DNA of 64,000 nt, taken from contig CM049887.1 in the NCBI GenBank assembly GCA_027474245.1, forward strand, positions 20,687,762 through 20,751,761. The letters run 5' to 3'. Of this stretch, positions 16,985 through 58,006 are shown in pieces; within the stretch, counting starts at the first letter, position 1; every line of letters starts with the position of its first letter. The notes under the pieces are model-generated. The model saw only the letters and a list, made by a program, of their open reading frames with translations. It did not search any database and had not been told where the DNA came from. The translations under genes were made by a program, and so were the position numbers. The DNA comes from Spheniscus humboldti. Its lineage: Eukaryota.

Positions 16985-17420
16985 TGCCTTCCCAACAGGA
17001 CCTCTGGCCTCCCGGCAGGGGCGAGGAGGGGTCAGGCTAGGCAGCGCCTCGCCGATCGCTGCAGCCCAGCCGCGCCTCAGGGTGGCGAAAGCTGTCCGCG
17101 CGGGCCACAGCAACCACCGCCCTCCCCCTCCCGCCTCGCCGTGATTGGCTGCGATGGGAACAAGGGCCGACGAAGCGCCCGGTGATTGGGGGTTGGGGTG
17201 GCTGTTTTGGCGGGCGATGGGCGCCGTGAGGCTGTCGTTCTTCCCTCGTGACGAGGGGAGTTGTGTCCCGTCCCGTCCCGTCCCGTCCCCGGCGGTCTCG
17301 GTATGTCCCTGCTTCAGCCTCTTCACCGGCGGCCTCGTGGCACTTGCAGCGGCAGTGGTGCTCTGGGCGCCGGCTGGGGGGAAAGAGCACCTCTCCCATA
17401 GAGTAGCAAAAAAAATAAAA
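16985..17420 (+). promoter_or_regulatory. RNF17: CpG island / putative RNF17 core promoter
   Basis: A sharp rise in GC and CpG density sits in otherwise AT-rich DNA. Two inverted CCAAT boxes (ATTGG) lie at 17144-17148 and 17185-17189, and a (TCCCG/CCGTC)x5 repeat at 17266-17290. The island lies ~400-600 bp upstream of the first RNF17-like spliced exon. Confidence 0.6.
17150..17300 (+). other. RNF17: Candidate non-coding exon 1 (5'UTR) of RNF17, ending at the GTATGT donor at 17301
   Basis: A donor-like GGTCTCG|GTATGTCC lies inside the CpG island. If this exon were read in frame 0 into the next exon it would hit a TGA, so it is presumed non-coding. The 5' boundary (TSS) is unknown. Confidence 0.3.
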
Positions 17421-17789
17421 TAAAAAGCCAGATAGCAGGCCTTAAGGAAAGGAGTCGGGCTCAGTATACATGGTGCATCGCAAACAGGGCGTGAACTTAC
17501 AGTGTTGAGATACTGCAGAAAAGAGAAATAATCATACTGATACATAATAAGGAAGGAGGTCTGAAGACTAGTAGTGGTGTCTCCTGCAGTCTGGTACTGG
17601 TAAGGTTAGGGGTGGAGTAGCTGGATAGTGCAAAACAGGCTAGTGTTTTGCTGCATTTAAAGGATTTCGCTTTTTAAGGAAAAAATAGATGCATGTTTCC
17701 TATGAATTTTATGTCTTCATTTTACTCTGTGCCAAGTGATGTAAGTAACCTGCAGCGTTTGCTCAAGTGATGAAATGTGTATGTTGTAG

Positions 17790-17899
17790 AGAATTTGTCA
17801 CCTTTTAAAGTCAGACACCATCATGAGTAGAAAGAAAGAGTTCTCCTTGGTGGATGACAGTAATGAAGAGCTTAATAGAAGGAAAATGAAAGCTGTAAG
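17790..17899 (+). CDS. RNF17: Candidate exon 2 with putative start codon ATG at 17822 (MSRKKEFSLVDDSNEELNRRENESCK), donor GT at 17900
   Basis: Acceptor TGTTGTAG| at 17788-89 and donor AAG|GTATGT give 26 open codons after the ATG. The Kozak context is weak (C at -3), and the peptide does not resemble the mammalian RNF17 N-terminus, so this may instead be 5'UTR or a uORF. Confidence 0.35.
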
Positions 17900-19362
17900 G
17901 TATGTGAATGGTGAGATTACTCCAGTGACTTTATAATTTTTAAGTTCTGAAAATATAACTATCAGGCAATAGTATTGAGGAAATGTAGAAAATAATATTT
18001 GTATTCTGCAGTGTTGTAAGTGAGTCCATTCTTATGTATGTGTGTAAAACATGCAGTTTGTGGAAAGTTTTAGCATTTGGAGTAGGTTCAGGGAAAAAGA
18101 CATTTTAAATGCATCGTAGGATGTTGTCAAATACTGAGTTATTAGGCTACCAATATCTCGTATTGATCTGTGTGTATATTTTACAAGTAAATGAATGACT
18201 GTTGATCTAGTCAATATATTTTTAGTTAAATAACTATAGAATGAATGTGATGAAAATTGATTATATAACCATCTATTAATGCTGGTTCTAGTTACCTTAA
18301 ATGCTGGTTCTCCATACCTAAAAGCTCTAGTGCCACCTTTACAGATGATGAATTCAGTATCCTAGAGGTAAATTGCTTCTGTTCCAGTTAAAAGGGGGTA
18401 ACAAAATTTTTGTGTGTGTGGTGGTGTGTGTTTCATTACCTGCGCCACCTTCTGCATAAAGTCATTTGGTAAAAAGTGGGCAAGCTTAGTTCTGAGGGAG
18501 CTGGAAGTCAGAATTCATGGTTGGTTGATATCCCTAATGATCTTAAACCTTTACTTTTACTTCTGAAGGCAATGTCTTAAGATACTAGAAGAGGATTTTA
18601 TAGAACCAAATTGGAGAAACAGTGACTTGTGTCATATGTCAAAAGCTATGAGTATGAAAGGTAAGGCTTTGGATCTTGACTTTTATTTCCAGCAGTTTTG
18701 TGGTGTGCAGTATTCACTGTTAATTTATATTTTATATGGCCTGTTAAAGACAACAGATGGGCTGCCGGATTTGATTAACGCATTGTTTGTTTACTACATT
18801 TCTAGTACTCGGCAAGAATGACCAATACCTTTCTTTTCTCCTCCTGCTGTTTTTCTTGACGAAACTACTGGAAAGTTTGTTTTAAAAGAAACCTCACTTT
18901 TCTGGGATTTTCTGCTTGATTATCTTTTTTCCAAGAATTGTAAAATTGTGTTGAGTACATAGTATTTATGGATGCTTTATGAAACATTTTTTTTCCTGTC
19001 CAATAGGTACACATTTTGAATGTGTGTTTTCTTTTGGTTTTTTGCCTTCCCTTTCATGTATTTATCCTCTCCTGAATGTAGCAGCAACCTAATATAGCTA
19101 ATCATGCAGATAATACCCTAATCATTAAATGCAAGTAAGTTTTCCTAATTCCCAGATAACTTCTGTATCTATTTATCTGGACTTCTATTCCTAGTTTTCA
19201 AATTTTGTCACTACAGAAGTCAATGTCCAAATTCCTGTTGACCTGATGAATACTATGTAGAAAATTACTCCAGTGATCATGTATTCCTCTGTTTCATTAA
19301 GATGCCCACCAGTTAACAACATTTGCAGTTTCCTATGCAGTTTTCTATGCTTGTTTTTACAG

Positions 19363-19421
19363 CGTTGCATGATGATGTGAAGGATGAAGACACTGATTTT
19401 TTTTGTTTGTCTTCTACAGAA
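19363..19421 (+). CDS. Weak candidate micro-exon (LHDDVKDEDTDFFCLSSTE)
   Basis: Acceptor TTTTTACAG| and a strong GTAAGT donor; only one frame is open. The phase (2+57 nt) does not connect to the flanking candidates without an undiscovered exon on each side. Confidence 0.15.
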
Positions 19422-21939
19422 GTAAGTTGGTCTAAAGCTTTCTGTTCAGTAGTCATTGTGGTGATCTGAAATAGTGATATTACAGCATCTTTTGCATTTT
19501 CGTTGAAAGTGATTAAAGCAAGGTCAGATCCTCTCTGAGGTAAGGGCCTGCACTTTATAACCATCTGCTCCCCAGCAGGTCTTAGCTACATTGCGTAATG
19601 AGAAATGCTAGCAATGTAGTGCGCATCTGATGTCCAAAGTCTGGTTTTAGGACAGTTTAATTCACAGTTCTCATTAGTGCCCCATGTGGCCAACTCTGTT
19701 CCACCCTCTCATCTGCACATGATGTAAAGAAAGCAAGTGGTGCATATGCACCTTTTTTAAAAAAAAACAAAACTCTTTCCCTGTCAGCTCCCAAATAAAA
19801 GGACTGAAAAGATTTTTTTTTTAAAAAAAAACAGCTTCACTTTGCATGGTAGTGCATAACTTAAGAATATATTTCTGTTTCTGCGTTTAAAGAAAAAAAA
19901 ATTGCTCTGCTTGTGAATCTTTTCTGTGTTATGACATGCTAATGCGATTTGTTTCACAGAAATCTGTATTTTGGACAAACGTTAAGTGCTTTTTTTAATT
20001 TTTAATTTATGCAAAAGATAGGATGTGGCCATTCTGTTTTTTCTGTTGTGGAATTCAGATTTAGCTTTTATTGCAAAATACAAATAAGTCTTTGGAATTA
20101 AGCCCCGTCATTAAACTTTATTGAAAAAAATAACTTGTAATCAGGTTCACTAATGCAGTGTGTTAGAAGTTTTGCATAATAGTGGGAAAAATGGTAAGAG
20201 CAAACAGAAAATCAGTATTCCTTTTACTAGAAACACACTTCATTTACCACAAAGATACACTGATGGCTACAGAGCTTTGGCTTGGAAGCTGTTTTCTTAT
20301 ACTTCTTTGTTGCTCAATTGAACAGCACTTGCTTTGAAGCTTGGTCTCATTGAAATGAGGGTGAGGGGGTACTGAAGATGAAAACAGGCTTATAGAACAT
20401 TTTTTTCACTGGGACTTGGATTTAGCCCTGTATTTGAACTTGCTTTACTTCTTCCCTCTGAATTTAGACCAAAACTGATTTTAAACTTGGGCTGTGCAGT
20501 GGCAACTCACAAAGGCTAGCAAGGTAAGCCTTTATTAACTCAACTGTTTTTTATGTGTCTAAACACATCTAAATGCCAGACTGGGGGAGGACTTGACTGA
20601 GCAAGCATTTCCAGCCATTTTTGTTGGGCTGACTTTTTTTTTTTTTAAATATGTTCTTTAAACTTTACTAATGTGTTCTCAGTATGGGCGTCTAGTACTG
20701 TGAGAAAACAACTTGCTTGACACGAGTACAAATGACGCGTTATTGAAAAGCAACAAGAAACAGATTGTTTGGCTTGAAAATGTTTGGAACTGAAAGTTTT
20801 AAACACTGTGGTAACTCCCTGATAAGGGTTCAGAGGGAGAGTAGAGAACTCCTGAAATGCCAGGCTGTGGTAGGAAGGACTATATCATTGAAACGCCTCC
20901 TTCCCCCCATCGCCCTGCTGCTCCCATTGTACTTTCTGCTTAGATAACCAGTCACAGCTATAAAGATTAGATGCCAGCAACATTCTGTGGTATTGTCATA
21001 TCTAAATTACATTAACTTGCTTATTTGTCTAGCCTATGTGAACTTGAAGGAAGTCTTAAAGTGGATGTCTTTCCCCCCACTGCTCTTGCTATGGCATTAT
21101 ATGCTCATCACAAATGAGAACCGGGCCAGATAATTCTTACAGATGTGTTACGTAAGGAATCTGTTCTATACATACCTGTTCTGTAAGGGAGGTATAGGAA
21201 ATTTATCTTCTGAGATTGGTCCACGTAAAGTGCATCGCTAACACTGCCCAAGGTAAAATAGAAACTTAGGATTTCATGTATGGCTGTCAGTCTCTGCAGC
21301 AGTGTTCTCCAAGTCCTCTCACAGTCCCATCAGAAACAACAAACAGCACAGGAAGAACAACACAGTGCTGCCTTCCTGTAATTAGGCTAGTTTATGCAGA
21401 CTGCTTTTGTGAGAGTCTTGACTGCTATTTGGATCATGTGTACTTTGCAGAAGAGCAGGCATGGGTGACCATACGGCAGAATTTAAGAGTCTTCCTAACA
21501 GGTTGTCAGTAGATGGTTTTAGTATAATCTGTCATGTATCATGGATTTTAACAGCCTAATCAATATCTGATGGGATATCTAAAGGAAAATACTTGAGCAA
21601 CAAATGAAAAATGAATCCTGGAATGTTAATAGTCATGCATTTTACTCTCATTGAGGATAAAAATCACTACCACCTACTAAGGTTTTGTTCAGCCTTGCCA
21701 AAATTGTCAGATGAAAAATAGTTACTGAAGATTAATTTTAAGATGATGCTAGTAGAAAGGAAACTTTTTGAAAAATGAGGTATCTGTAGTATATCACAGT
21801 GTGAAGAAGTCTACTGTTTTAAAAATAGGTGTGTATGTATTTAATGACATTTTGAAAAACGGTGTCTGAAGTATTTGTGGGAAGTTTGATATTTTATTTA
21901 AAATGTGTAGGTTTTTTCCTTAGAAGTTTTGTTTTGCAG

Positions 21940-22039
21940 GCCCTTTAGTCACAGTACTGAAGAGAAAAATGCTCAGTACCCAGTTTCTTCAAATGGTGGG
22001 CTGAGGGATAAACCAGCTCTAGCTCCGTCAGCAGACATG
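21940..22039 (+). CDS. RNF17: RNF17 N-terminal region exon (..PFSHSTEEKNAQYPVSSNGGLRDKPALAPSADM)
   Basis: Acceptor TTTTGCAG| at 21938-39 (an alternative is TTAG| at 21922-23, in the same frame) and donor ATG|GTGTGT. The translation resembles mouse ..NQGHYPVDGFIEEDSSLEALPPK. It starts in phase 2 and ends in phase 0. Confidence 0.45.
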
Positions 22040-24255
22040 GTGTGTTAATATGGAATTTCCTTATATTCTCACTCGTTATTTTTGTATATGCATAGTTAAT
22101 ATTGCGCTTCTTAAAACACAAAAACTTGCAGCCTTAATAGTTATGTGCTGTTGTGCCATCTTATCATAGAATTGATGTGCAGCTACAGTGTTAATAAAAT
22201 AACTTGACAAAATGAATGCTGCTCGAACCCAACCAAATCATAGGTGAGGAGGGCTATTGTATTCAGCTGGCTGTGAAACTGTGTATTTTGAATTCAGCTT
22301 TTTAAAAAACACCTGAGGCTTCACAATGTTTGGGTTTGGGGCTTTTCTATTTCTTTCTAAAGTTGAGAGAACTGCAAGGCTCGTGCAACACATCTTTAAA
22401 GTAGTCATTCAGGGCAACAAGGTTGTTAGACAAATGGATTTCTCTTGAAACACTCCATTAAGTTTTCTAGTCTTATCTTTCTGAATGAGGTTTGTGAAGT
22501 CTTAGATCAGGTGAACTAATGTGGATATTTTAAAATGACAGAATAAAATGGAAATGAATGATACATCCTGTGCCAGTCCTGTTTCCTTCTATGGAGATTG
22601 TCCTGTACAGTTACTTTGAAAGAATCGTAACTTGCAAACGTCTGTCTTGGTTTCTTAGGTAGTTTTGTTGTAGTGGCCGTTAAAGTTCGAAAATGTTTAT
22701 TGTTTTTTTTAACTTTTTTTTGAAAAGCCTATTTGAAATAAAGCCATGTCATGTTATCTTAAACTTCAGTATATTACTGTTGACAAAATATTAAAGGAAA
22801 CAGCCTGAGGTTATCTTCAAAGTGTCTTGAGTTTGAGGTCATAAGTAATATTTTGATGGCAGTCACCTGTTGAGAGAATATTTTCTTTTTTTGGAGAAAG
22901 TTGTTGAGAACGACCTCCTGTGAAAACCCACATTTATTGAGATCCTAGTCCAACTGCTACTTCTGTTTCTTAAGTTTTTTTCAGTCTTTTGTTTTGTGGC
23001 TGGTGATTACTAGATCTTTGGCAATATCGTTTCTTAAATCATTGAATGAGTATATCCATGTCTTTTGAGTTTTGGAAGGATTTTTATTACTGCATCATTG
23101 ATCATAATGAGAACCACGAAGTACAGAGGGAGCAATGTAATTCCATGACATTTTTACCTATTATGTCTCCTTGCATCTGCTCAAAACAGAGTGGGAATAG
23201 TTGTCATAGGGAAGTATTCCTAACACAGTTAACATCCAAGTCATAATAGGAGGAGGGTTTTCTTTCCTTTTTCTGCTCCTAGGAAGGAGACATAATCAGT
23301 CTGAGATGTTCAGATACATGAATTGGAAAGTTCTAGAGATGAAGGTGACAACAAACATCTTTAATAAACTCCATAATGATGTGTGTGACTAACAGGTCTC
23401 TGGCAGCACTTCCTTTCACTTACACCAGTGTCTGGTCAGAGGCAGAACTATTTCAGGTTTTTGTAAGCTTTAATTTCTCTCTAGTTTGTGTTTGTTCTCC
23501 TTAACGCTAGTGAGGAAACCTTTAGAAATTGGAGATGTTTGCATGTTAGTTAAGTTGCCTTTTGGCAAGGTGAACTGGTTGCCTCATAGTGACAGACTTA
23601 GACAGCACCATCCCTGACTTTTCAGGGCATCCCCAGCTTATGATGTTCTCATTTTGTTTTTATCAAAATACCAGCACTCTAACCAGTACTTCTAACTCTA
23701 GCTTTAGTAGTGCCAGTGAGAAAATAAGACATTTCTGTATGTACATTTGCCTCTGTGTCAATTCATATGCAAGTATTTTTTTGGCTTTTCTTGCATCAAC
23801 ATAACACTGGGAGCTTATTACATTTTTTCTTTTTTGTTGGTTTTCCCCAAATGATATTCGTAAATATTTTCCTTTTTTCTAGGCTGCAGTATTCCCATTC
23901 TTCAATCTAGCGTGTTTTCTTTCCTCTGTATTAGTAACTTTATTTTGATTTTCCTTCTTGTACTATCTTTTCCTTTTTTTTGTGTGTGTATGTGTCTGTG
24001 CAAATAAATTGCATGTATTTAACAAACAAAATTTAGAATCCATGTTTCAGAAATACTACAATGTAAATCTTCTCAGTGTAATTCAGGTGAGCTAAGTATT
24101 TTGGACCTGTTCGCAGCTATAGAGCTGCTCAGAGCCTTACACAGATCATCAGTCACCCACATCAAGTACCTCTGTCAAAATGGCAAATGAGTATAGCCCA
24201 TCTTGTCTTCCAGTCATACAAGCAACTTTATATTCATTGGCAAATCTTTCCCCAG

Positions 24256-24336
24256 GACAGCAAAACTATGGAAGATATTGATGAAGCTTTGTGCATAGCT
24301 ATTTGTAACCTCAGCCACTTACATGATGCAGACGAG
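24256..24336 (+). CDS. RNF17: RNF17 exon (DSKTMEDIDEALCIAICNLSHLHDADE)
   Basis: Acceptor CTTTCCCCAG| and donor GAG|GTGGGT, 27 codons, phase 0/0. It aligns to human [27 protein letters not shown]. An alternative in-frame upstream acceptor at 24212-13 would add SYKQLYIHWQIFPQ. Confidence 0.75.
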
Positions 24337-25881: not shown

Positions 25882-25982
25882 ATGCTGAAATACTTGGACT
25901 TGAAAGTGAAGCAGGAAGGAGACAAAGTTGCAGAAACTGTAGACAGAACGTTTGATGAACTTATTACTTCTCTCCTGTCAAG
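25882..25982 (+). CDS. RNF17: RNF17 exon (MLKYLDLKVKQEGDKVAETVDRTFDELITSLLSR)
   Basis: Acceptor AAATAG| and donor TCAAG|GTAGTA. It aligns to human [35 protein letters not shown]. It ends with 2 nt, and the next exon supplies 1. Confidence 0.8.
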
Positions 25983-26839: not shown

Positions 26840-27011
26840 GAAGAGGAAGTTGTGTGCAGAATTAGTGAAGAGCATCAACAACTACAGTGCTGGTATTGCA
26901 AAAGCTAAGGAAGTCATTGAAGAGAAGAAAAAGTGCTTGATTGGTGCCATTAGGATTGCAAAGGAATTAAAAATTACACCTTCTGTAAGAACCTATTGTG
27001 ATCTTGCTCAG
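26840..27011 (+). CDS. RNF17: RNF17 exon (KRKLCAELVKSINNYSAGIAKAKEVIEEKKKCLIGAIRIAKELKITPSVRTYCDLAQ)
   Basis: Acceptor AATATAG| and donor CAG|GTAGTT. It shows strong similarity to human KKNLCEEFARTTDDYLSNLIKAKSYIEEKKNNLNAAMNIARALQLSPSLRTYCDLNQ. The open frame continues 13 codons past the donor (VVTFLHC..), so a slightly later donor is possible. Confidence 0.85.
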
Positions 27012-28453: not shown

Positions 28454-28530
28454 GTTATTTATAATTTAAAGTTGCCGGTTGAGGCTGAGCTCTCAAGAGT
28501 GAGTGGTTTGAAGGAAAAAGTATCTCCAAG
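28454..28530 (+). CDS. RNF17: RNF17 linker exon (VIYNLKLPVEAELSRVSGLKEKVSPR)
   Basis: Acceptor TAATTTCAG| and donor CCAAG|GTAAAT. It aligns to human IIRTLQLTSDSELAQVSSPQLRNPPR. Phase 0 in, 2 nt out, which matches the neighbouring exons. Confidence 0.7.
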
Positions 28531-29284: not shown

Positions 29285-29865
29285 AAATTATCATAGAATC
29301 ATTTAAGTTGGAAAGACTTAACATCACAGAGTCCAACTGTTAACCTGACACTACTAAATCCACCACTAAACCATGTCCCTAAGTGCCATGTCTGCACATC
29401 TTTTAAATCATAGAATGGTTTGGGTTGGAAGGGACCTTTAAAGGTCGTCTAGTCCAACCCCACTGCAATGAGCAGGGACATCTTCAACTAGATCAGGTCG
29501 CTCAGAGCCCCGTCCAACCTGACCTTGAATGTTTCCAGGGACGAGGCATCCACCACCTCTCTGGGCAACCTGTGCCAGTGTTTCACCACCCTCAGCATAA
29601 AAAATGTCTTCCTTATATCTAGTCTGAATCTACCCTCTTTTAGTTTAAAACTGTTCCCCCTTGTCCTGTTGCAACATGCCCTGCTAAAAAGTCTGTCCCC
29701 GTCTTTCTTATAAGCCCCCTTTAAGTATTGAAAGGCTACAATAAGGTCTCCCTGAAGCCTTCTTATGTCCAGGCTGAACAACCCCAACTCTCTCAGCTGA
29801 ATGCCTCCAGGGATGGTGACTCAACCACTTCCCTGGGCAGCCTGTTCCAATGCTTGACAAAAATT
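29285..29865 (-). mobile_element. Cluster of 2-3 juxtaposed CR1 3'-terminal fragments, minus orientation
   Basis: The CR1 3'-end signature (ATCATAGAATCAT.., the reverse complement of the ATTCTRTG repeat) occurs twice, at 29288 and 29407. The minus-strand ORF 29488-29787 encodes the CR1 ORF2 C-terminus (GLFSLDIRRLQGDLIVAFQYLKGAYKKDGDRLFSRACCNRTRGNSFKLKEGRFRLDIRKTFF..VVKHWHRLPREVVDASSLETFKVRLDGALSDLI). A further CR1-like piece lies at 29795-29860. Confidence 0.75.
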
Positions 29866-31249
29866 ACGATTCTTCTTGTCATGTGTTAGTTGAGTCATTA
29901 GAATATGGATAAAGGAATCTTTAAAATAATCTTGGTGAACTTAGTGACTTGGTAGGTAGGGCCTATTTTGAAGATGTCAGTGGTGAATGAGAACTTCAGA
30001 GAAGCCTATTTAAACACACAATGGCAAACTCTACCAACCTAGAAGAAAGCTAAAACATGACAAAATCAAATTTGTTTGCATTGGAAGACCTTGTAAGAAC
30101 TTGAACAAAACAGGGGAAAAAGGAGATCTGATGAAGGATGAGTATAAAGGCTTCATGTGCTGGTGCCACTCCCAAAATAACACAAAAGGTGAAAAAATGG
30201 CAGCTAGGAGGTGCATAGGAGTTGAGGCACATTCTGTAGACATAAAATACTGTAGAATGAAGGATAGATACGTTCCTGAAGGGGCAGGGGGGAGAAGAAA
30301 AGATGGGCTGTTCAATACTGCTTACGCTTCAGCTTTCACAAATTGTTCATTATAACTGGACAGCAAAGCTAAGGATTTGATTGAATGAAGTTATATTTAC
30401 AGTTCTGTTAGCCTAACTGTAAAAGCACTTAAAAGATTTTCCTAGCTTTCATTGATAAAGGAAACAGCTGTTTATTAGTGTAACAATAAACAGAACAAAA
30501 CATACATTTTGGACTTCAGTTATTGTTTTGTTCTTCAGGACTGTTGGAGAATTCTTTTTCTCCATGCAGAATAATTTATTGAACTAAACTGGGTATAGGT
30601 ATGAAAATTCAGTTGAGTGGATGTTGGAGTACTCTGTGCCTGAGAGAAAGCAAAAGGCAAGAGAGTGTTTAAGTATGAATGTGAAGATAAATGGTCAACC
30701 AAATCTGTTGTTAATAGGAGTGGAAGAATGAAACTGGAGCAGGTAATTAATCTCTTATTTTGCCCCCCCATGATATTGTGCTGAAAAATATCGTACATCT
30801 TAAACTGTCAGAGTGATTTAGGTATCATGTCACCTTCTGTAATGTTTCTTCTCTCGAGATTCTTCCTAAACACTGATGAGATTACATCTTTGTTAAAAAA
30901 TTTGGGCAAGATTGAATGGGGAACAACAGGGCAGTAAGTATTTTTTTTAATAAAGGGGATAGGTACAGTAACTTACCTGTTCTTCTAATGGTTAAATATT
31001 GGAGAATACATTTTAAAATATTTTAAAAAATCTGTATATGCTTATGGGTTTGTAAGAGTATAATGAAACAAAGCAAAACTTCAGATGCTGGTATTTCAAT
31101 TAGCATTCCAGTTAATCCAGTTAGTGTTTCAGTTTTGGCATTTCAGTTTTACTGGTGTTTCACCCAACTATATTTCACTCTATCACTTAAGTTATCAAGA
31201 TCTTTTTATGCTGTGTGCTTTTCAGCTTTGGCTGACATTTAATGATACA

Positions 31250-31378
31250 ATCATAGAATCATAGAATCATTTAGGTGGGAGAAGACCTTTAAGATCATCG
31301 AGCCCAACCATTAACCTAACACTGCCAAGTCCACCACTAAACCATGTTCCTAAGCACCACGTCTGCACGTTCATAGTA
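31250..31378 (-). mobile_element. Short CR1 3'-end fragment, minus orientation
   Basis: AATCATAGAATCATAGAATCATTTAGGTGGGAGAAGACCTTTAAGATCATCGAGCCCAACC..CCACTAAACCATGTTCCTAAGCACC matches the CR1 terminus seen in the other copies. Confidence 0.6.
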
Positions 31379-32076: not shown

Positions 32077-32399
32077 ACTGGATTATATCAATTGGTCTCC
32101 AAATAAATGTTTTCCCAAATACAGTGAAGATAGTGGACAACACACTCTCATCCTTGATGACAAAGAAGAAATGCCAGGCTGTGATTCTCAATCATCTGTA
32201 GAGAATATGTTTCCAGCACTTAGCAGAGAAAGTAAAATAAAGGCTCTTGGAAATAAACTCAGTGTTCACAAAGAAGTGAAAAATACTCAAGTACAAGAAA
32301 CACTTCTTATGCTACGTCATCAGAGTACTCCTGCTCTATTCAAGTCTCCATCCAGCCCTGATGTCATAATAGAAGAAATACTTGAAGATGACCTGGAAA
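32077..32399 (+). CDS. RNF17: RNF17 linker exon (..LDYINWSPNKCFPKYSEDSGQ...KSPSSPDVIIEEILEDDLE)
   Basis: The 3' end is secure: the SPDVIIEEI motif and a GTAAGT donor at 32400. The 5' acceptor AAAACAG| at 32075-76 was chosen for phase; an in-frame TAA at 32039-41 limits any 5' extension. It aligns to human ..STKCYPQENEIRQ...GSSPDVIIEEIIEDNVE. Confidence 0.7.
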
Positions 32400-34564
32400 G
32401 TAAGTTTCTTAATACTTGATGCTTTCAGTGTTCCATTGTTGAGCATGATGTTATTTATGTGTTTTGTGTTACGTTTTGTGTTTGTAGTTATACTCGGCTC
32501 ATATGAATTCTTTAATGATGTCTGTCTTTCCCTTTATCTTCCTTTGAGCTAGCATTGTTTCTTTTTTCTTCTCCTTCAGCTTAGCTTAGTGAAAAGTTTC
32601 TCACAAGTTCTCTCAAAGAGGGCTCATAAGTTCCTGTGTCTGCCTGGATGATTCTCTTTGACTCTTAGTGATTACAGTCCCCCTCAGAGTTTCTGACTTT
32701 GAGTCCTGGAGGATGCTTTTCTGGCAGTTCCCTTGGCTTCCTGAATCTTCTCCCAGGGCATTGTCCTACGTTAATTGGCAATAACAATTAAGTTCTTCAG
32801 CTTGTCAGGTTTTCCCTGGACTGTATTAGTAAGGGTGTAGCTAACGGGTCCAGGAAGTGATCCTTCCCCTCTGTTCGGCTCTTAGAGAGCCGAATCTGGA
32901 GACTGAATCTGGAGTACTGTGTCCAGTTTTGGACGCTGCAGTACTGAAAGTCACTGTCGTACTGGAGCGAGTCCAGCAGAGCCTACCAAGCTGGTGTCCA
33001 GGAGGTGCTCAGGGATAGGGCTGAAGGCGTTAGGAACAAGTTGGAATATGGAAATTCCAATTAGATAATAGGGGGGGAATAGATAGATGTGTCCCACGGT
33101 ATAATTAAGATGCTTAACTTCAGAGTGTGCTATGTCCACAACATACCTAGAAAATCCCTATGATTAGTAATGCTTGGGGAGGATGAGGGACAGGGTAGGG
33201 GTAGTATGTGAGAGTAATTGTGGTAGCATATAGCTGTGATCAAGGTGAAGTAACTTTCAGAGCTTGGGCGTGACTCTCTATAATAGCGTATTCAGAATCC
33301 CATTGGACTTCACAAAACTCTTGTCAGAACAAAATTCCTTCAAACTGCAGTGTTAAATGAGTTTTGCATATCTTGAATCTAAAAATTTTAATGATAGTTT
33401 TGTAATCTTGGAATTAGCGTGTGGGCTGGCCATGTGCACATAGTCACTGTGTGTGCATCTGTTTCAGTCACATCAGATATGAGAATTTTTGCCTTTGCAG
33501 TACCCTTACAATACATGTAATTTCTCTTCACTGTGTTTGCTGCTTTACTACATATGTTTAAATAACTAACTGAATTCATTAAACTTTTCTCCTAAACCAA
33601 TAAACAAACAAGAGTTTCCCACAGAATATCATGCTGATGAACAGAGGAAGAAACTCTTCAAGAAGGAAACACCTTTTCAACACAAAGCTGGTTAGTGGTT
33701 TTCCTATCTGGTAAATGGTTCGGTTTGCTAGAAGTGACCCATCCTCTAAGCAGTGAGAGCAGACACTAGAATTTGTTGGAGAGTTGGACACATACGTTAG
33801 CATTCTAGTTGGGATCAGGAATGTACTAAGAAGCAGATCTCCTGACCATCCCTAGTTAGCATGTATTTGCTCACATGTAAGAGCAAACTTGGGGCACATG
33901 AATTGATTTCCTTCCAGTTAAAACTAGTCTGGGAGGTGCTTACAGTGCAGATGTCATTCTTAGCACCAGCAGTTCTGCTCTGCAAAAACACTCCCTGGTC
34001 TGCTCTTCTTGCTATGTAAAGACTATACAATCTTTTAAGATTTACCATAAAACCACTTAGTTGGAAGATGCAATACAGGAAGTCCCAAGCAACTTTCAGA
34101 AACAACATTGGCAGTGTTTCTCAACACCTGGCAGATATTTGACATAATGATAGCAGTGCTTGCTGTGAACGGTGGGACCCATTTCTTAGGTCAGTAGTTT
34201 ATATACTGAATTTTGAACTGTTGTCTTGTTCTCCCTCCATCTATGTTTGGTTTTCTGAATTATGAATGAAAAGAAAAATGTACAAAACAGTTTTCTAAAA
34301 ACTTCTGACCCATCCACCACCTTTGGTGAGTAGCTTCAGAAAGAGAAACCTGCATTTTGGATCCCAAATCAAGGGAGGTACCTGCAGTACAAAGGATTTG
34401 GATGCTTAGTCAGAAGTAGTGTCTTACATAGGGTCTTGTCAGATTAAAAGCTATTTGAGGTAATGTTATCATGATTAATGTAACATAAACCTAATCACAT
34501 GTCTAATAATATCTGTTGGAGTCACTTCGAGAGTGTTTGATAATCTGTTTTATGTCTTACTCAG

Positions 34565-34726
34565 GTTCGACAGAACTAGTGTTTGTAAGCCATGTTATAA
34601 ATCCATGCCACTTCTATATTCGGAGATACTCACAGAAGAAAGAAGCAGGGATTTTGGAGAAGAAATTGAAAAACTTCTGTTGTAATAAGAGTTCGTATCT
34701 CTTGCCTTCAGATGTTTTGGAACTAG
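34565..34726 (+). CDS. RNF17: RNF17 exon, start of Tudor 1 ([53 protein letters not shown])
   Basis: Acceptor TTACTCAG| and donor CTAG|GTAAAT. It is near-identical in pattern to human [51 protein letters not shown]. Confidence 0.9.
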
Positions 34727-35595: not shown

Positions 35596-35785
35596 GTGCT
35601 AGAACTTTTATTAAGAGTAAGGAGACTGGAATGTGGTGCCGTGGAACTATCACTGAACTAATTCCCCTAAAAAGTAAAAATGAGAGGAAGCATTGTGGTC
35701 CAATAAGATACAAAGTTTGTGATATTGCACTGCTGGAAGTATTCCTGATTGATTTTGGGAGCTCTATAGTTCTAATTTTCTCAGG
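35596..35785 (+). CDS. RNF17: RNF17 exon, Tudor 1 core ([64 protein letters not shown])
   Basis: Acceptor CTGTATAG| and donor TCAGG|GTATGT. It matches human [24 protein letters not shown]...IFMVDFGNSEVLIVTG. Confidence 0.9.
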
Positions 35786-38947: not shown

Positions 38948-39086
38948 GTTTAGATCACAGCTTCCCAGTCAGTTAGAAAATAATACCATCTTACAGTATT
39001 GTCCACCTAAGATTCCACAAGAAAGAGAAGAAGTCTCTGTTGTAGTTTGCCATGTTAATAGTCCAAGTGATTTCTATCTCCAGTTG
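38948..39086 (+). CDS. RNF17: RNF17 exon, start of Tudor 2 ([47 protein letters not shown])
   Basis: Acceptor TACCTTAG| and donor TTG|GTAAGT. It aligns to human [48 protein letters not shown]. Confidence 0.85.
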
Positions 39087-39566: not shown

Positions 39567-39720
39567 AGAGGTAGCCTGGATTCTTTAGATCTTCCAAAGA
39601 AAATTCAGGAGGTATATAAACATGAGTATGGGAAAAACTTAGAAATTGTCTGCCCAGTTGAAGGCCAAGCTTGTATTGCAAAACAGGAAGATGGGAATTG
39701 GTACAGAGCACAGATTATAG
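39567..39720 (+). CDS. RNF17: RNF17 exon, Tudor 2 ([51 protein letters not shown])
   Basis: Acceptor TTATTTTAG| and donor TATAG|GTGAAG. It aligns to human ..[39 protein letters not shown]. Confidence 0.9.
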
Positions 39721-40417
39721 GTGAAGTATTGATTCTTTCACTCTAATGCTAGGTTGCAAAATCAGATGTGGTACTAGGTCAGTCACACACTGGATATGAA
39801 TAGTCACAAACAGCCATTATTTTTACTAGGCATTCTTATACTAACAAGTAGGTTCATAAAGTCAGTAACACTAATTCATGTTCTATTCTTTTGCTATTAA
39901 TGGAGTGTTTTATACTTTTTTTTTTAAATAGAAGCAGTATACTTCATTTTCTATATATTATTGAAACTCTATAATATAATTATCTTAAATGTTTCACTTA
40001 CTATTACAGTTTGAACTACAGATTTGTCTATTATAGCCAACCTCTGGGTGTAACTAGTGTGGGTTAATGATTCCCCATAGTAATTCTGAAGGGGGTGGGG
40101 GGTGTACCTGTGCTGACCTCTATGTTGCCTGTATGGGCAGTGTAGCATGCCTGTATGCTGACATGTCTACTTGGCATGTATTTAATATGCCAGTGTCTCA
40201 TACAGTGATTAGATGGAAGGGGACTCTGTCATTTCAGGAACCCAAAAGAGCTGGCTTTTAAAGAATATAGCTTTTTAATTGGGTTATAGAACATTTGAAA
40301 ATTTGATATTTTATGATTACATGGTGTAAATGTGGATTTTACTCTGAAATTCTGGTGCTTTAACCTGTATCAGATACTCATTTTTTGTTTTAATAACTTG
40401 GGTTGTTTTTCTTGAAG

Positions 40418-40533
40418 GGCTGCCAAGTTGTCAAGAAGTTATGGTAAAATATGTTGACTTTGGCAACATTGCTAACTTAACTCTTAAAGACATACGCAGA
40501 GTAAAAAAGGAGTTCCTGAGCTTTCCAGAAAAG
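40418..40533 (+). CDS. RNF17: RNF17 exon, Tudor 2 ([39 protein letters not shown])
   Basis: Acceptor TCTTGAAG| and donor AAG|GTAAAT. It aligns to human [38 protein letters not shown]. Confidence 0.9.
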
Positions 40534-40791: not shown

Positions 40792-41475
40792 TTAATTCAA
40801 ATACCTTCTTTTACTCCACAGTAAGCCAAATTAATTTTTACACTCCTTCATTTTCAAATGATGATCTAATAATGGTCTTTTTTAAAAATTACATTTTTGT
40901 TTGTTTTATGGCATTTAAAGTTTGGTGTTTTCCTAACTTTAGGTATTGTAGGACTTTCCCTCTTCTGACAAGGAGAAAAACTGAGTGGGAAAGGAAATGG
41001 CAAAGTATTTCTGTCAAATAAAAAAAGCACATAAGTAGAAAATAATTCTTTTTCTTAAGCTGTTCTTTCGATAGTTCTGGTTGCCAACCATAATTATGCT
41101 AAACTTTAGAACTTTATATGTTGATAGGGGTTTTTTTAACCGATTGTAGGCACCAGAAGTAGTGATTGTTGTAACTAAGGTTGGCCAGCATCTTTTACTA
41201 AAAATAGGATTTAATTGTTTATGTTTTGAGCAGATGTTTCTGGGGGAAGTTTCAGCCAAAATAATTGAGCCTTTTTTAACAGCAAGGGAGAGGAAACATT
41301 CTGAAAATGGCAGAATGTATTTGCAGTTGCAATGTCTTAATGCTTCAGATCAGAGCAGCTAATGAATAAGGATGTTGGGATTTTTTCTGTGTGTTATCCC
41401 ATCGTTCCAACTGATAGCTTGTGACCAAATATAAATCCTCAGAAAAATCAGTTAAAGAGTTTGTCAGCTCTTAGA

Positions 41476-42935
41476 ATCATAGAATCATTAAGGTTGGAAA
41501 AGACCTCTAAGATCATTGAGTCCAACCGTCAACCCAACACTACCATGCCCACTAAACCATGTCCCTGAGCACCTCATCTACAGGTCTTTTAAATACCTCC
41601 AGGGATGGTGACTCAACCACTTCCCTGGGCAGCCTGTTCCGATGTTTAATCACTCTTTCAGTAAGGAAATTTTTCCTCACATCCAATCTAAACCTCCCCT
41701 GGCACAACTTGAGGCCATTTCCTCTCATCCTATCGCTTGTTACTTGGGAGAAGAGACCAACACCCACCTTGCTACAACTTCCTTTCAGGTAGTTGTAGAG
41801 AGCGATAAGGTCTCCCCTGAGCCCCCTTTTCTCCAGGCTAAACAACGCCAGTTCCCTCAGCCGCTCCTCTTAAGACTTGTTCTCCAGACCCCTCACCAGC
41901 CTCGTTGCCCTTCTCTGGACACGCTCCAGCACCTCAACATCCTTCTTGTAGTGAGGGGCCCAAAACTGAACACTGTATTCGAGGTGCGGCCTCACCAGTG
42001 CCGAGTACAGGGGGACGATCACTTCCCTACTCCTGCTGGCCACACTGTTTCTGATACAGGCCAAGATGCCATTGGCTTTCTTGGCCGCCTGGGCACACTG
42101 CCGGCTCATGTTCAGCCGGCTGTCAACCAGCACCCCCAGGTCCTTTTCAGCTGGGCAGCTTTCCAGCCACTCTTCCCCAAGCCTGTAGCGCTGCATGGGG
42201 TTGTTGTGGCCGAAGTGCAGGACCCGGCACTTGGCCTTGTTGAACCTCATACAGTTGGCCTCGGCCCATCAATCCAGCCTGTCCAGGTCCCTCTGCAGAG
42301 CCTTCCTACCCTCGAGCAGATCAATACTCCCGCCCAACCTGGTGTCGTCTGCAAACTTGCTGAGGGTGCACTCAATCCCCTCATCCAGATCATTGATAAA
42401 GATACTGAACAAGACCGGCCCCAAAACTGAGCCCTGGGGAACACCGCTCGTGACCGCCCGCCAACTGGATTTCACTCCATTCACCACAACTCTCTGGGCC
42501 CGGCCGTCCAGCCAGTTTTCGACCCAGCGCAGAGTACACCTGTCTAAGGTGTGAGCCACCAGCTTCTCTAGGAGAATGCTGTGGGGGACAGTGTCAAAGG
42601 CCCTACTGAAGTCCAGGTAGACCACATCCACAGCCTCTCCCTCATCCACCAGGCGGGTCACCTGGTCATAGAAGGAGATCAGGCTGGTCAGGCAGGACCT
42701 GCCTTTCATGAACCTGTGCTGGCTGGGCCTGATTCCCTGGTTGTCCCGCTCATGCCTTGTGAGCGCCCTCAAGATGAACCGCTCCATAATCTTCCCCGGC
42801 ACCGAGGTCAGGCTGACAGGCCTGTAGTTCCCCGGATCCTCCTTCCAGCCCTTCTTGTAGATGGGTGTCACATTGGCAAGCCTCCAGTCGTCCGGGAGCT
42901 CCCCTGTTAACCAGGACTCTTGAGCACGTACTACT
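41476..42935 (-). mobile_element. CR1 LINE, 5'-truncated (RT domain to 3' end), minus orientation, in an RNF17 intron; reading frame broken by frameshifts
   Basis: Minus-strand ORFs 42269-42871, 41870-42250 and 41552-41845 together encode the CR1 RT (..[51 protein letters not shown]..) and the C-terminus. The 3'-end signature AGAATCATAGAATCATTAAGGTTGGAAAAGACC is at 41476. The copy is ~95% amino-acid identical to the copy at 60420-62925. Confidence 0.9.
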
Positions 42936-44356: not shown

Positions 44357-44477
44357 GCAATCAGGTGCAGGCTGGCTTTCATTGAGCCTTATAAAGGGGC
44401 AAATGAGTGGAACAGAGAAGCCAAGGAAAGATTTGAAGAAATGACTGAAGATAAACTTATGCTGTGTTCAGTTGTTG
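44357..44477 (+). CDS. RNF17: RNF17 exon (AIRCRLAFIEPYKGANEWNREAKERFEEMTEDKLMLCSVV)
   Basis: Acceptor TTCTTTAG| and donor TTG|GTAAGT. It aligns to human [40 protein letters not shown]. Confidence 0.9.
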
Positions 44478-45232: not shown

Positions 45233-45350
45233 AAATTTTAGATAATAACATCTTATCTGTTGAACTCTCTGACTCCTCTGCTGTTCATGGAAGAAGCTTT
45301 AGTATTAACTGCCAGCTAGTTAAAGAAGACTTAGCATCCTACATACCTGG
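45233..45350 (+). CDS. RNF17: RNF17 exon (EILDNNILSVELSDSSAVHGRSFSINCQLVKEDLASYIPG)
   Basis: Acceptor TTATTCACAG| and donor CTGG|GTAAAT. It aligns to human [41 protein letters not shown]. Confidence 0.85.
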
Positions 45351-48641: not shown

Positions 48642-48863
48642 GTACGCTGAAAGTACTGTTGTAAGGCCCAATGAAATATGGGATGTTCCTCTAGAAGACA
48701 TTCCTGAATCCTCGGAAGCTTTAAATCCTATAGACATGGAATATGTGGATGAAGGAGATTTCAAATCACTTTCTAAGAAAGAGCTACAAGTGAGAATTAG
48801 TCATGTTGTGTCTCCCAGTAAGATTTTTATACAGTGGCTGTCATCAGAAAGTATACTGAAAAG
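48642..48863 (+). CDS. RNF17: RNF17 exon, start of Tudor 3 (..IWDVPLEDIPESSEALNPIDMEYVDEGDFKSLSKKELQVRISHVVSPSKIFIQWLSSESILK)
   Basis: Acceptor TCTTTACAG| and donor AAAAG|GTACTA. It aligns to human ..[64 protein letters not shown]. Confidence 0.85.
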
Positions 48864-49837: not shown

Positions 49838-49988
49838 TTTACAGGAGAAGATGGCTACCATCTACAAAGAATCCCAGCCACAGTCCATGAAGTGGGAAGA
49901 TAGTATGCACTGTGCTGTTTACGTACGTGATTTGAAACAGTGGCAAAGAGGTCAAATAAGCAGGATTGTCTCTGAAACAAGTGCAGAG
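49838..49988 (+). CDS. RNF17: RNF17 exon, Tudor 3 (SLQEKMATIYKESQPQSMKWEDSMHCAVYVRDLKQWQRGQISRIVSETSAE)
   Basis: The acceptor is GAATGTTAG| at 49836-37; this upstream AG is the one that keeps the frame, because the AG 7 nt downstream would create a stop. The donor is GAG|GTAAAC. It aligns to human [51 protein letters not shown]. Confidence 0.8.
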
Positions 49989-51124: not shown

Positions 51125-51243
51125 GTGATACTTTATGATTCTGGAGCTGAAAAAACAGTGGATATCAGCTGTCTAAGAAAACTTGAGGAAAATATGAAGA
51201 TAATTAGGACATTAGCAATAGAATGTTCCTTGGCAGATATAAG
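51125..51243 (+). CDS. RNF17: RNF17 exon, Tudor 3 ([39 protein letters not shown])
   Basis: Acceptor TCTGTAACAG| and donor TAAG|GTAGCC. It aligns to human [39 protein letters not shown]. Confidence 0.85.
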
Positions 51244-52024: not shown

Positions 52025-52115
52025 ACCAACAGGTGGAAGCACGCAGTGGACAGCAACAGTGTGTGAATGTTTATCCTATTACTTAACGGGGGCACAAGTA
52101 AAAATAATGATACAG
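52025..52115 (+). CDS. RNF17: RNF17 exon (RPTGGSTQWTATVCECLSYYLTGAQVKIMIQ)
   Basis: Acceptor TATGTTAG| and donor CAG|GTTTGT. It aligns to human [31 protein letters not shown]. Confidence 0.85.
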
Positions 52116-52968: not shown

Positions 52969-53084
52969 GAAAGTGATGTGGCTTGTGCATTGCCTGTGAA
53001 AATCCTTTGCAAAGATGAAACAGGACAATTGATTGATATTTCAGAACACCTTATTAAAAAGGGCTTGGCTTTTAGAAACAGAAG
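52969..53084 (+). CDS. RNF17: RNF17 exon (ESDVACALPVKILCKDETGQLIDISEHLIKKGLAFRNR)
   Basis: Acceptor T11CCAG| and donor GAAG|GTTTGG. It aligns to human ..[37 protein letters not shown]. Confidence 0.85.
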
Positions 53085-53406: not shown

Positions 53407-53711
53407 AACTGATAAAGCTGGTGTGGCTTGCTCAGTCTCCAAGGAACATCTTAAAGTACATTTAGAGCAAGAGAACACACAACTGGATGGTTGTAATTCA
53501 GAAACACGTGCAAAAACCAGCGCTGCTCCAGAAGAAAACATCACTGTTTCAGAGAGTGAACAAAAATCATTGAAAACATATAAGGCACTGCTTCATTCAG
53601 GAATGGATGAAATATATAAATCCCCCATTATACCTGAAGCGAAAATTTTTCAAGCTGTAGTAAGTTGCGTTGGACGTGATGGAACTATTTATATAATACC
53701 AAAATCATTTG
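53407..53711 (+). CDS. RNF17: RNF17 exon, linker plus start of Tudor 4 (RTDKAGVACSVSKEHLKVHLEQENTQ...PIIPEAKIFQAVVSCVGRDGTIYIIPKSF)
   Basis: Acceptor TCTGCTAG| and donor TTTG|GTAAGA. It aligns to human ..LEVPLEQEDSV...[30 protein letters not shown]. It is the largest exon in the window, at 305 nt. Confidence 0.85.
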
Positions 53712-54972: not shown

Positions 54973-54974
54973 AG

Positions 54975-55138
54975 AAATCGAACTAAACAAATTGATGACT
55001 GAAATACAAAGTAACTTCAAATGCCTTGGTCTTCTGGAACCCTACTGCTGGAAAAAGGGAGAAGCTTGTGTTGTAAGAGGATCAGATACCATGTGGTATC
55101 GAGGTAAAGTTGTAGAACCTGGTGGTAGTACTCTCCAG
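54975..55138 (+). CDS. RNF17: RNF17 exon, Tudor 4 ([55 protein letters not shown])
   Basis: The acceptor is preceded by a C12 homopolymer (54961-54972), and the donor is CAG|GTAAGT. It is near-identical to human [55 protein letters not shown]. Confidence 0.9.
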
Positions 55139-55961: not shown

Positions 55962-56081
55962 GTACAGTACATAGACCATGGTTGCATAGAGAGGATTCCT
56001 CAGTGTCATCTGTATCCAACTACATTGTATACTGCTGTTCCTCCGTTTTGCATACCATGTCAGCTCTACAAGACAGTACCA
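55962..56081 (+). CDS. RNF17: RNF17 exon, Tudor 4 ([40 protein letters not shown])
   Basis: Acceptor TTTTCATACAG| and donor CCA|GTGAGT. It aligns to human [40 protein letters not shown]. Confidence 0.9.
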
Positions 56082-57142
56082 GTGAGTAATGGGAAATTTG
56101 AAGACGTTTTAGTAGGTAGTTACTCAAATCGATACACTGGTCATACAAAGGTTGAGACTAGTTGCTGGTATTTTTTCTTGCCTATGAGGATTTAGAGAGT
56201 AGCTGATGAGGATCATTTCACCAAGGCAGCCTTTTATCAGGAAATGCCAGATTGCTTTATGAAGTGACCATGCTTCTAAAGCAGCTGTCATTGGAATTAA
56301 ATCTTTGTAAGACAGGACACTGCAGTAGTTGGCAGGATGATACTCTGAAGTGGTAGTTTGTTGTGCAATAGCAGCAACAAGAAGTAAGGCCTGGATTTCT
56401 TAATGCAAAATGGCCAGAAAATTGTAAATCTTCAAGTCCTGCAAAAGTGTTTCTATCATTCTGAACTTAGCTGTGTGGGAAACACTCTGTTATGCTAAAC
56501 TAATACAAGTGAATTGTTTTAGGGGGTTTTTTTAGTAAGTAATTGATACCTGAATAACATCTTCACATATCATCGCATCTTATTCAAATTTGAATGCTGC
56601 GTTTAGTAAATGTGAATTACTGGAATGACTAGCTTACTTTTAAACTTATTTTTAAATAAAACCTTTTTATTGCTCGAAGCAGTTCAACTGATAGAATAAG
56701 AAAGACAGGCTTATAAGCCTGCGGGTTGGGAAGCAAACAGATACTGCAGGGAATAAAAGTAGTATTTAAAGTATCCTGTGTTTTCTGATGTCTGTTAAGT
56801 TATCTTCAAGTGTAATTCTGTATCTTTGGGTTATGCTTCAGGTAATTGTGCACACATACATTATTATGTATATAGTAAAGATTAGACTTGGCAAGCAGCA
56901 TCTCTTTCTAAGCCACTTCAAGATCTTGAAATTGTTGGTCGGCTTTGTCACACAGTAAGTTTTAGTGTACCAAATAGCAGATAATGTTTAAACTGTTGTA
57001 GACAAATCAAACTAATGCTGTGTGTTTTCAAATAAGTTTTTCAATGATAGGCACATGTTTTCATCTTACTATGTTAAGAATAGTAAGACTATTACTTGTC
57101 AGCATCTTAATGTGTGGGGGTTTCTTGCTTTTCACCAAATAG

Positions 57143-57223
57143 ATTGGAAATTTTTGGCAGCAGGATGCAGTAGATTGCCTTCAAGAACTACTTACAAATG
57201 AAGAGGTTGAAATACATGTTCAG
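57143..57223 (+). CDS. RNF17: RNF17 exon (IGNFWQQDAVDCLQELLTNEEVEIHVQ)
   Basis: Acceptor CACCAAATAG| and donor CAG|GTAGCT. It aligns to human [27 protein letters not shown]. Confidence 0.85.
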
Positions 57224-57880
57224 GTAGCTTAATTTATTCATAGATGTGGAATGAGGCTTACTTTTTGTTCTCTTTTTTTTTTTTTTCCTTGCATTAAGAA
57301 TCACAGGTGAAGGAGTATAGCAGTAAATATATTTCTTAGACAAAACAAAATCCAAAGCTATAGTTGTTTCTCCTGTGACTTTACCTTTATTATATTTTTC
57401 AGGCCTTAAGCATGTCCTTTAGAGGTATTAATATTTTTTGGTCCTGTTTGTATTCTTTGTTGTCATTCTGAGAAGCAACCTATCTACTAACAGCATAAAT
57501 TCTTCTAAATTCAATTTTAAGTTACTAAAATCTGGCATAATTAAGTATGGACATGCTTAAATTAATATATTAACATTATTGGGAAACACATAATCTGTAT
57601 TTTCTGAAAACCTGCAGTTTCAGATAGTTTAATTTCTAATGATAAATTGTGAAAGAGAAGGGTTTATTGTTAAGTGAGTAAACATGGGATAATGTGCTGC
57701 CATTTCAGAGATATATTCCCATTTGTGTCATAACTGATGTTAATAGCCACCCTTACTGGTTTTGTATCTTTGATGAATATGGTGCATATAGGAATGACAG
57801 GTTTGAATTTCCTGGTCACTATTTCTAAAATCTCAGTCACGCTATTACTGTTAGAATCTTATTTTGTCTTGTGTAAGTAG

Positions 57881-58006
57881 GAATTGCCAGATAACCCATG
57901 GGGCAAATTGTCCATCAGCCTGTATTTTGGTGGAATGTCGCTTTCTTCTTTCATGGCATACCAGAAGTACTGTGTTGCTGAAGATTGTCAGGACATATCA
58001 GAGCTG
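57881..58006 (+). CDS. RNF17: RNF17 exon ([42 protein letters not shown])
   Basis: Acceptor GTGTAAGTAG| and donor CTG|GTGAGA. It aligns to human [40 protein letters not shown]. This is the last exon I could place; the gene continues past the window. Confidence 0.85.

Follow-up and report, generated by a model that had tools for sequence, protein, structure and literature searches.

The RNF17 (TDRD4) locus of the Humboldt penguin and an apparently RING-less form of avian RNF17

The RNF17 gene in the window

The DNA analysed in this study is a stretch of 64,000 nucleotides of the Humboldt penguin Spheniscus humboldti (assembly GCA_027474245.1, contig CM049887.1, positions 20,687,762 to 20,751,761 of the forward strand), called the window below and numbered from its first letter. 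The window almost certainly holds the promoter and the first 32 exons of the single-copy RNF17 (TDRD4; fly Qin) orthologue of a Spheniscus penguin. This is an ordinary gene that is already in public annotation, where a 100% identical penguin protein is included. The composition and open reading frame (ORF) content are of vertebrate type, with AT-rich sequence, a single GC-rich island near 17 kb and reverse-transcriptase ORFs, and short Tudor-like open segments are numerous on the + strand between 32 and 58 kb. The model reported here runs on the + strand through 31 coding exons (17823-58006), which splice into an ORF of 4,095 nt, or 1,365 codons, with no stop, an outcome with a chance of about 3.5e-29 for random codons. 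All 30 coding introns have GT-AG boundaries and the phases are continuous. A first-pass annotation made from the letters of this DNA had already placed avian RNF17 here with consistent splice sites and phases, and its multi-exon + strand gene at 17.1-58.0 kb and its end at 58006 are retained. However, its count of 24 exons has to be raised to 31 coding exons together with a probable exon 1 that is non-coding, and its start at 17150 does not serve as a coding start, as this position probably falls in a 5' untranslated region (UTR) exon within a CpG island and the ATG lies at 17823.

When the spliced product was searched against the database, more than 100 of the top matches carried the source name RING finger protein 17; they came from birds, turtles, alligator and mammals, and the S. 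humboldti protein was the best of them. Residues 129-1365 of the model, which correspond to coding exon 6 onward, were identical to the GenBank S. humboldti RNF17 at 1237 of 1237 positions. The N-terminal 128 residues equal Aptenodytes RefSeq RNF17 except for a few substitutions and a 9-nt alternative donor, and the two Aptenodytes proteins (XP_019327643.1 and XP_076184763.1) are 97% identical over the whole model, the five N-terminal exons included; the model departs from annotated penguin RNF17 in small differences at the coding exon 2 donor and around exon 12. Identity falls to 91% in fulmar, 76% in ostrich, 69% in chicken, 61% in turtle and 53% in dog. The bird identities, together with insertions of CR1 long interspersed elements (LINEs) recognised by RVT_1, agree with an avian origin. 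The best PDB match was 2EQK, 'Tudor domain-containing protein 4' (E 4.5e-21), and the matches to TDRKH and TDRD1 scored lower and were of the generic extended-Tudor type only.

Exon-intron structure points the same way. When annotated proteins were threaded exactly onto their own loci, introns with the same position and phase were found for 30 of 30 in ostrich and for all six that could be tested in marmot, where residue and phase both agreed, so the proposed conservation of intron positions with mammals holds. The TBLASTN comparison suggested in the first-pass annotation was also run, and chicken RNF17 matched 27 of the 31 coding exons in order, turtle 23 and dog 20, with dog and turtle colinear as well; what distant proteins failed to match were exon 12 (78 nt) and the short exons at the N-terminal end (56-100 nt). 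Full-length colinear best similarity to proteins named RNF17 and a conserved exon-intron structure are thus both present, and at the level of sequence the named best matches and the intron positions identify the gene as the RNF17 orthologue.

As had been noted, the gene continues past the window's 3' end. About 1,595 codons are expected, of which the window encodes 1,365, or the 5' 85% of the gene, and no part of the last 230 residues of penguin RNF17 maps to 58007-64000. Ostrich RNF17 has 36 coding exons in total, five of them beyond the last one in the penguin window, and the next ostrich exon lies about 4 kb downstream; the 6 kb from coding exon 31 to the end of the window are intron, with a CR1 LINE. 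The penguin gene is compact: its 31 coding exons in the window occupy about 40 kb, compared with 55 kb in total in ostrich and 116 kb in a canid; the turtle and canid genes each exceed 100 kb.

Exon structure, promoter and neighbouring elements

A human RNF17 sequence, used as a guide only, gave more than 20 colinear TBLASTN blocks between 26.8 and 58.0 kb. A first model of 25 exons, obtained by enumeration of GT-AG junctions and beginning at 24256, had no stop codon and contained four Pfam TUDOR matches; it lacked exon 12 and five N-terminal exons, used an acceptor at 32077, and was replaced. In the final model ibis RNF17 served as the reference for the N-terminus and Humboldt penguin RNF17 for the remainder. 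The five short N-terminal coding exons are supported by Aptenodytes RefSeq proteins. The GenBank S. humboldti entry (KAM6283465.1) begins with MDSKTMEDIDE and is without these five exons (128 codons), which are intact in the window.

All features of the gene lie on the + strand, and phases are given below as entering and leaving phase. The CpG-island promoter region of RNF17 (17000-17400) has a GC content of 0.70 and a CpG observed/expected ratio of 0.83 (41 CpGs), with 0.13-0.29 in the flanks; ATTGG motifs resembling a CCAAT box are visible in it, and ostrich DNA lying upstream of RNF17 aligns with it. The GC skew changes sign along the window, with negative values over 1-14 kb and positive ones between about 17 kb and the end. 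Transcription leaves a strand asymmetry in base composition, and this change of skew fits + strand transcription beginning near 17 kb. Within the island lies a probable non-coding exon 1 (about 17041-17181), whose donor CCG/GTGATT at 17181/17182 scores 7 of 9. In the gannet, flamingo, frogmouth and kiwi models the coding sequence reaches into sequence that maps to 17085-17181 and then splices to 17811, the exon that begins SDTIM. That acceptor sits 12 nt before the penguin ATG at 17823, and no in-frame ATG was found in penguin exon 1 (17041-17181). By homology, then, exon 1 is probably 5' UTR in penguins.

Exon 1 does contain an out-of-frame upstream ATG at 17154, which may be the start taken in the first-pass annotation. 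After splicing it would open a short upstream ORF (uORF; MGTRADEAPVRHHHE followed by a stop) overlapping the main start at 17823 (17154-17181 joined to 17811-17829), and a low-quality sandgrouse RNF17 model begins with a peptide resembling this uORF. Just 5' of the 17811 acceptor, positions 17745-17790 form a block conserved between penguin and ostrich (ostrich locus about 9915-9955; CTGCAG.TTTGCTCAAGTGA.GAAATGTG), the surroundings of which carry non-triplet indels; the block may be a splicing or regulatory element.

Exon 2 of the gene, the first coding exon (17811-17899, coding from ATG 17823 to 17899, leaving phase 2), follows the acceptor ttttaaag/TCAGAC and encodes MSRKKEFSLVDDSNEELNRRKMKAV, the N-terminus of Aptenodytes RefSeq RNF17 and of many other birds. 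Coding exon 2 (18569-18660; 2 to 1) has an alternative donor at 18651, and this shorter form, 9 nt upstream, is found in the Aptenodytes, stork and eagle models, the long form in ibis, tropicbird and ostrich. Coding exon 3 (19363-19421; 1 to 0) encodes ALHDDVKDEDTDFF..., which matches bird RNF17, coding exon 4 (20468-20523; 0 to 2) encodes TKTDFKLGLCSGNSQRLA, identical in Aptenodytes, and coding exon 5 (21940-22039; 2 to 0) encodes PFSHSTEEKNAQYPVSSNGGLRDKPALAPSADM. A helical, coiled-coil-like region begins in coding exon 6 (24256-24336; 0 to 0) and is followed by coding exons 7 (25882-25982; 0 to 2), 8 (26840-27011; 2 to 0), 9 (28454-28530; 0 to 2) and 10 (30859-30933; 2 to 2). Coding exon 11 (32125-32399; 2 to 1) reproduces the S. 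humboldti and Aptenodytes proteins with its acceptor at 32125. The alternative acceptor at 32077 adds 48 nt, is used in a Pygoscelis model and retains a KCFPKYS motif that is coding in ostrich. Coding exon 12 (33613-33690; 1 to 1) is a symmetrical, cassette-type exon of 78 nt with a weak acceptor. It encodes KFPTEYHADEQRKKLFKKETPFQHKAG, which is present in penguin and other bird proteins and absent from marmot, and its omission keeps the frame. Every alternative at these three ambiguous places (coding exon 2 donor, exon 11 acceptor, exon 12 inclusion) is in frame.

The remaining coding exons in the window encode the Tudor region. Coding exon 13 (34565-34726; 1 to 1) starts Tudor 1, with intron position and phase as in marmot, and coding exon 14 (35596-35785; 1 to 2) carries its core; coding exons 15 (36245-36410; 2 to 0) and 16 (37738-37928; 0 to 2) follow. 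Tudor 2 starts in coding exon 17 (38948-39086; 2 to 0) and has its core in coding exons 18 (39567-39720; 0 to 1; ...NWYRAQII) and 19 (40418-40533; 1 to 0; VKYVDFGN), after which come coding exons 20 (44357-44477; 0 to 1) and 21 (45233-45350; 1 to 2). Tudor 3 starts in coding exon 22 (48642-48863; 2 to 2), and its core is in coding exons 23 (49838-49988; 2 to 0) and 24 (51125-51243; 0 to 2), which together yield the 2EQK match. Coding exons 25 (52025-52115; 2 to 0) and 26 (52969-53084; 0 to 2) lead to coding exon 27 (53407-53711; 2 to 1), which holds a linker and the start of Tudor 4. The core of that domain is in coding exons 28 (54975-55138; 1 to 0) and 29 (55962-56081; 0 to 0). Coding exon 30 (57143-57223; 0 to 0) and coding exon 31 (57881-58006; 0 to 0), with the donor CTG/GTGAGA, are the last in the window.

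Upstream of the gene, no conserved coding exon was recognised in the first 17 kb, where open segments were viewed by eye only, without a Pfam scan, and a P-type ATPase probe found no ATP12A-like exon. Over the first 14-16 kb GC skew is negative and AT skew positive, opposite to the body of RNF17, a pattern that divergent transcription (- strand) starting in the same CpG island could produce; in ostrich there is no called gene within 10 kb upstream of RNF17. An inverted repeat with arms at 4268-4880 and 6064-6653 (about 600 bp, 85-87% identical, about 1.2 kb apart) also lies in this region. A snowy-owl RNF17 model begins with a peptide that matches this repeat, and the repeat is therefore regarded as an interspersed element that has entered some annotations as a contaminant. 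No matches came from Rfam and tRNA scans of the whole window.

Two CR1-type LINE copies lie in RNF17 introns in opposite orientation (41473-42918 on the - strand and 61476-62921 on the + strand) and are 95.9% identical over 1,446 bp. Both have RVT_1 ORFs, and the + strand copy has an open reverse-transcriptase ORF of 482 aa and an (ATTCTRTG)-like 3' end. Recent activity is suggested by how similar the copies are and by the nearly intact ORF. At 29290-29408, 29800-29858 and 31251-31370 there are short fragments of the CR1 3' part. In the marmot RNF17 locus, a 167-aa cold-shock-domain (CSD) ORF, probably a retrocopy, occupies 23031-23534 on the - strand directly behind the first RNF17 fragment; nothing comparable was seen in the penguin window.

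Tudor domains and the missing RING

Pfam TUDOR matches occur at four places in the spliced product (model residues 415-489, 676-794, 912-1028 and 1176-1292), so the claim that the product reaches through a fourth Tudor domain stands. The C-terminal 230 residues of the identical penguin protein, encoded beyond the window, contain exactly one more. Penguin RNF17 thus has five Tudor domains in total, four of them encoded in the window, which is the number in the RNF17/Qin architecture. The expectation of at least five further Tudor-encoding regions downstream is correct only if exons are counted, as in ostrich, and not if domains are. The description of each Tudor as split over 2-3 exons was approximate, since a Tudor of Pfam length (120 aa) spans 3-4 exons and a full extended Tudor 4-5.

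Aromatic-cage residues were read by motif, except that Tudor 3 (core WQRG ... ILYDSGAE), which the scan did not return, was read by eye. The reference cage is taken here to be F740, Y746, Y763 and Y766 plus N768 of SND1. The Tudor 2 cage (39567-40533, model residues about 737-775) reads Q-Y-Y-F-N in penguin, four of five residues, Y-C-Y-F-N in ostrich and H-Y-Y-L-S in chicken, and is complete (F-Y-Y-F-N) in dog, opossum, turtle and alligator. Tudor 5 reads Y-Y-F-Y-S in penguin, and its aromatic residues are intact in every species examined. Tudor 1 (K-C-L-F-S), Tudor 4 (G-Y-Y-H-C) and Tudor 3 have a non-canonical cage in all species examined. Given the retained aromatics of Tudor 5, the partly retained ones of Tudor 2 and the non-canonical cages of the other three, Tudor 5 is the most likely methyl-arginine reader and Tudor 2 a weaker candidate, less sure in birds. 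The alignment of Tudor 2 with structures of TDRKH and TDRD1 (E about 1e-17), which like RNF17 are piRNA factors, covers the entire extended Tudor, and Tudor 2 shares most aromatic-cage residues with TDRKH, TDRD1 and SND1. However, these are other genes with other domain architectures, and their matches score below TDRD4 and cover one domain.

The N-terminus differs from the published description of the family. The first-pass annotation called RNF17 a RING plus multi-Tudor protein, which is right for mouse, but no RING is encoded by this bird gene. Neither a C3HC4 nor a C-x-H-x2-C-x2-C pattern occurs in the six frames of the 64-kb window, neither pattern is found on the + strand of the ostrich locus in its first 17 kb, and both sequences have zero N gaps. 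By regular expression, a full C3HC4 RING was present in every full-length turtle and mammal homologue retrieved, in 0 of about 90 bird proteins, and not in alligator. Matches to Pfam RING families were near or below threshold for the turtle, dog and opossum N-termini, and there were none for alligator, ostrich and penguin. Coelacanth and whale shark RNF17 carry a RING, and the RING is therefore ancestral.

A mammalian (rodent-like) genomic contig carries the RING core as a single exon of 95 nt, the end of which, in phase 0, directly follows CPDCE. The ATG-bearing exon of birds starts at the position and phase where this RING-core exon ends, and bird exon 2 is therefore equated with ancestral exon 3. 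As 95 nt do not make up a whole number of codons, birds without that exon are expected to use a start codon further downstream, and the bird start codon is found 13 nt into the exon that follows. The single gene model available for alligator has a recognisable RING-core segment in which two of the eight zinc ligands are left. The penguin gene is consequently a RING-less orthologue, a member of RNF17 by descent and not by full architecture. The wider reading is that avian RNF17 is naturally RING-less, that the RING-core exon has vanished without detectable trace, that exon 1 is now 5' UTR and translation starts 13 nt into ancestral exon 3, that the alligator orthologue, in which the exon is still spliced in, suggests loss of E3 function on the archosaur stem, and that the Tudor 2 cage is eroding. 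This combined reading is favoured here, but by a modest measure.

Two candidate relics of the RING were rejected. One, at 21435-21590 (CVLCRRAGMGDH...IIC...YLMGYLKEN), lies between coding exons 4 and 5, far from the RING site, has no usable splice sites and gave no individually significant match. The other, in intron 1 at 17745-17810 (TCSVCSSDEMCML, a stop and RIC), was compared with the RING-core peptides of turtle, dog, opossum and the rodent-like contig, and Smith-Waterman scores against 1000 shuffles gave p of 0.3-0.96 for penguin and ostrich; a tblastn E value of 0.03 near this position derived from the part that is genuine exon. In further homology searches, a word-indexed query with the turtle N-terminus gave no match, and an exhaustive representative search gave 11 matches, with no additional crocodilian or squamate among them.

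Alternative readings and biological meaning

The most serious alternative is that birds do have the RING exon and that it was overlooked, being split into tiny exons, placed more than 17 kb upstream or too diverged to recognise. GC-rich 5' exons of birds are often mis-annotated, several bird models run an ORF into exon 1 in differing frames, two bird loci were inspected at the DNA level, and Pfam RING scores are sub-threshold even in turtle and mammals. Nevertheless, the pattern searches of gap-free penguin and ostrich sequence found nothing, and a core that is one 95-nt exon in the rodent-like contig would be expected to show up as one ORF. The RING is absent from about 90 independent bird models, the models of several species join exon 1 directly to ancestral exon 3, and the alligator, with its two remaining ligands, represents an intermediate state. 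An overlooked exon is thus improbable. A further reading, in which RING loss is the first sign that the locus is a decaying, non-functional pseudogene, could draw on the absent RING, on the eroded Tudor 2 cage of birds and on a fairly high dN/dS. That ratio was 0.41 between penguin and ostrich overall and 0.28-0.40 in the Tudor regions, and it stayed clearly under 1 throughout, the N-terminal exons being no exception; the locus is therefore judged, on these sequence comparisons, to be under purifying selection and not a pseudogene. The 1,365 codons without stop or frameshift, the canonical splice sites of 30 of 30 introns, an architecture kept from ostrich to passerines and the intact Tudor 5 cage also argue against decay, which is given very little probability.

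Least probable of all, to the point of hardly deserving consideration, is that the gene is another multi-Tudor paralogue (TDRD1, TDRD6, TDRD15 or TDRKH). Tudor 2 does match the structures of TDRKH and TDRD1 well as a generic extended Tudor (E 1e-17 to 1e-16), and Tudor 1 searched alone gave only a weak TDRD1 match. However, among the 120 top matches listed, all that have an informative name were RNF17, full-length and colinear, the product is identical to annotated penguin RNF17, and its best PDB match is TDRD4 itself, so the better match to TDRD1, TDRD6 or TDRD15 that would have spoken for a paralogue did not appear. The ostrich orthologue also has the expected CENPJ neighbour, an opposite-strand CENPJ-like gene with CPAP/Tcp10_C domains lying tail-to-tail downstream of RNF17.

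Some caveats weigh against the account of a RING-less but otherwise conventional RNF17. Exon 1, the transcription start site and the three boundaries (18651/18660, 32077/32125 and inclusion of exon 12) depend on homology and on the annotations of others and should be regarded as predicted. Because the 3' end falls beyond the window, the locus is presumed complete from the GenBank protein that is identical to it. All functional statements about penguin RNF17 are transferred from mouse and fly, and avian RNF17 could work differently from that of mouse, as its RING is lost and its Tudor 2 cage eroded.

Mouse RNF17 is enriched in testis and has MIWI as an interaction partner (PMC4511215), and together with ADAD2 it builds granules (PMC10359003, PMC10040813). 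Spermiogenesis requires it, and it keeps PIWI proteins from promiscuous ping-pong (PMC4511215, PMC9114089). The reported fly homologue, Qin/Kumo of Drosophila, combines an E3-ligase domain with five Tudors and controls ping-pong (PMC4511215, PMC9114089). The relationship to it seen here is at the sequence level and distant, with the fly Qin structure 7OC3 among weak PDB matches (E 0.002), and Qin retains the E3 domain that the bird protein is without. Mouse and human RNF17 are orthologues and are colinear with the penguin protein from the linker and coiled coil through the Tudors (about 53% identity to dog), with five Tudors (PMC4511215) and with a third penguin Tudor close to the solved TDRD4 Tudor 2EQK. 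The differences are that penguin encodes no RING/E3 and starts in the exon after the mammalian 95-nt RING-core exon, and that the first cage residue of its Tudor 2 is Q, not F.

By analogy with mouse and fly, penguin RNF17 would be made in meiotic and post-meiotic germ cells and would assemble into granules with ADAD2. Its Tudor modules would bind PIWI proteins and piRNA-precursor complexes, and this binding would restrain inappropriate ping-pong and channel transcripts of pachytene clusters into piRNA production. In birds this role would have to proceed without the E3-ligase RING, the 95-nt RING-core exon presumably not being part of the transcript.

The identification of RNF17 in this study rediscovers a gene that public annotation already holds and matters little as a finding. 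The practical value is a cleaner model, with five N-terminal coding exons restored relative to the S. humboldti GenBank entry, a CpG-island promoter and 5' UTR exon placed, and three alternative boundaries flagged. The RING-less avian RNF17 is the sole point that might deserve follow-up, and a limited literature search found no comment on the absence of the RING from avian RNF17. The literature defines the family by an E3-ligase domain combined with five Tudors (PMC4511215), but a functional RING is missing from the entire bird lineage and, as it appears, from crocodilians. This loss makes the long-unclear E3 role of RNF17/Qin testable by comparison, and if birds restrain ping-pong normally, the RING would be unnecessary for that restraint. 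If the loss is true and previously unremarked, birds would be a natural experiment showing that the E3 module of Qin/RNF17 is dispensable for the role of RNF17 in the amniote germline.

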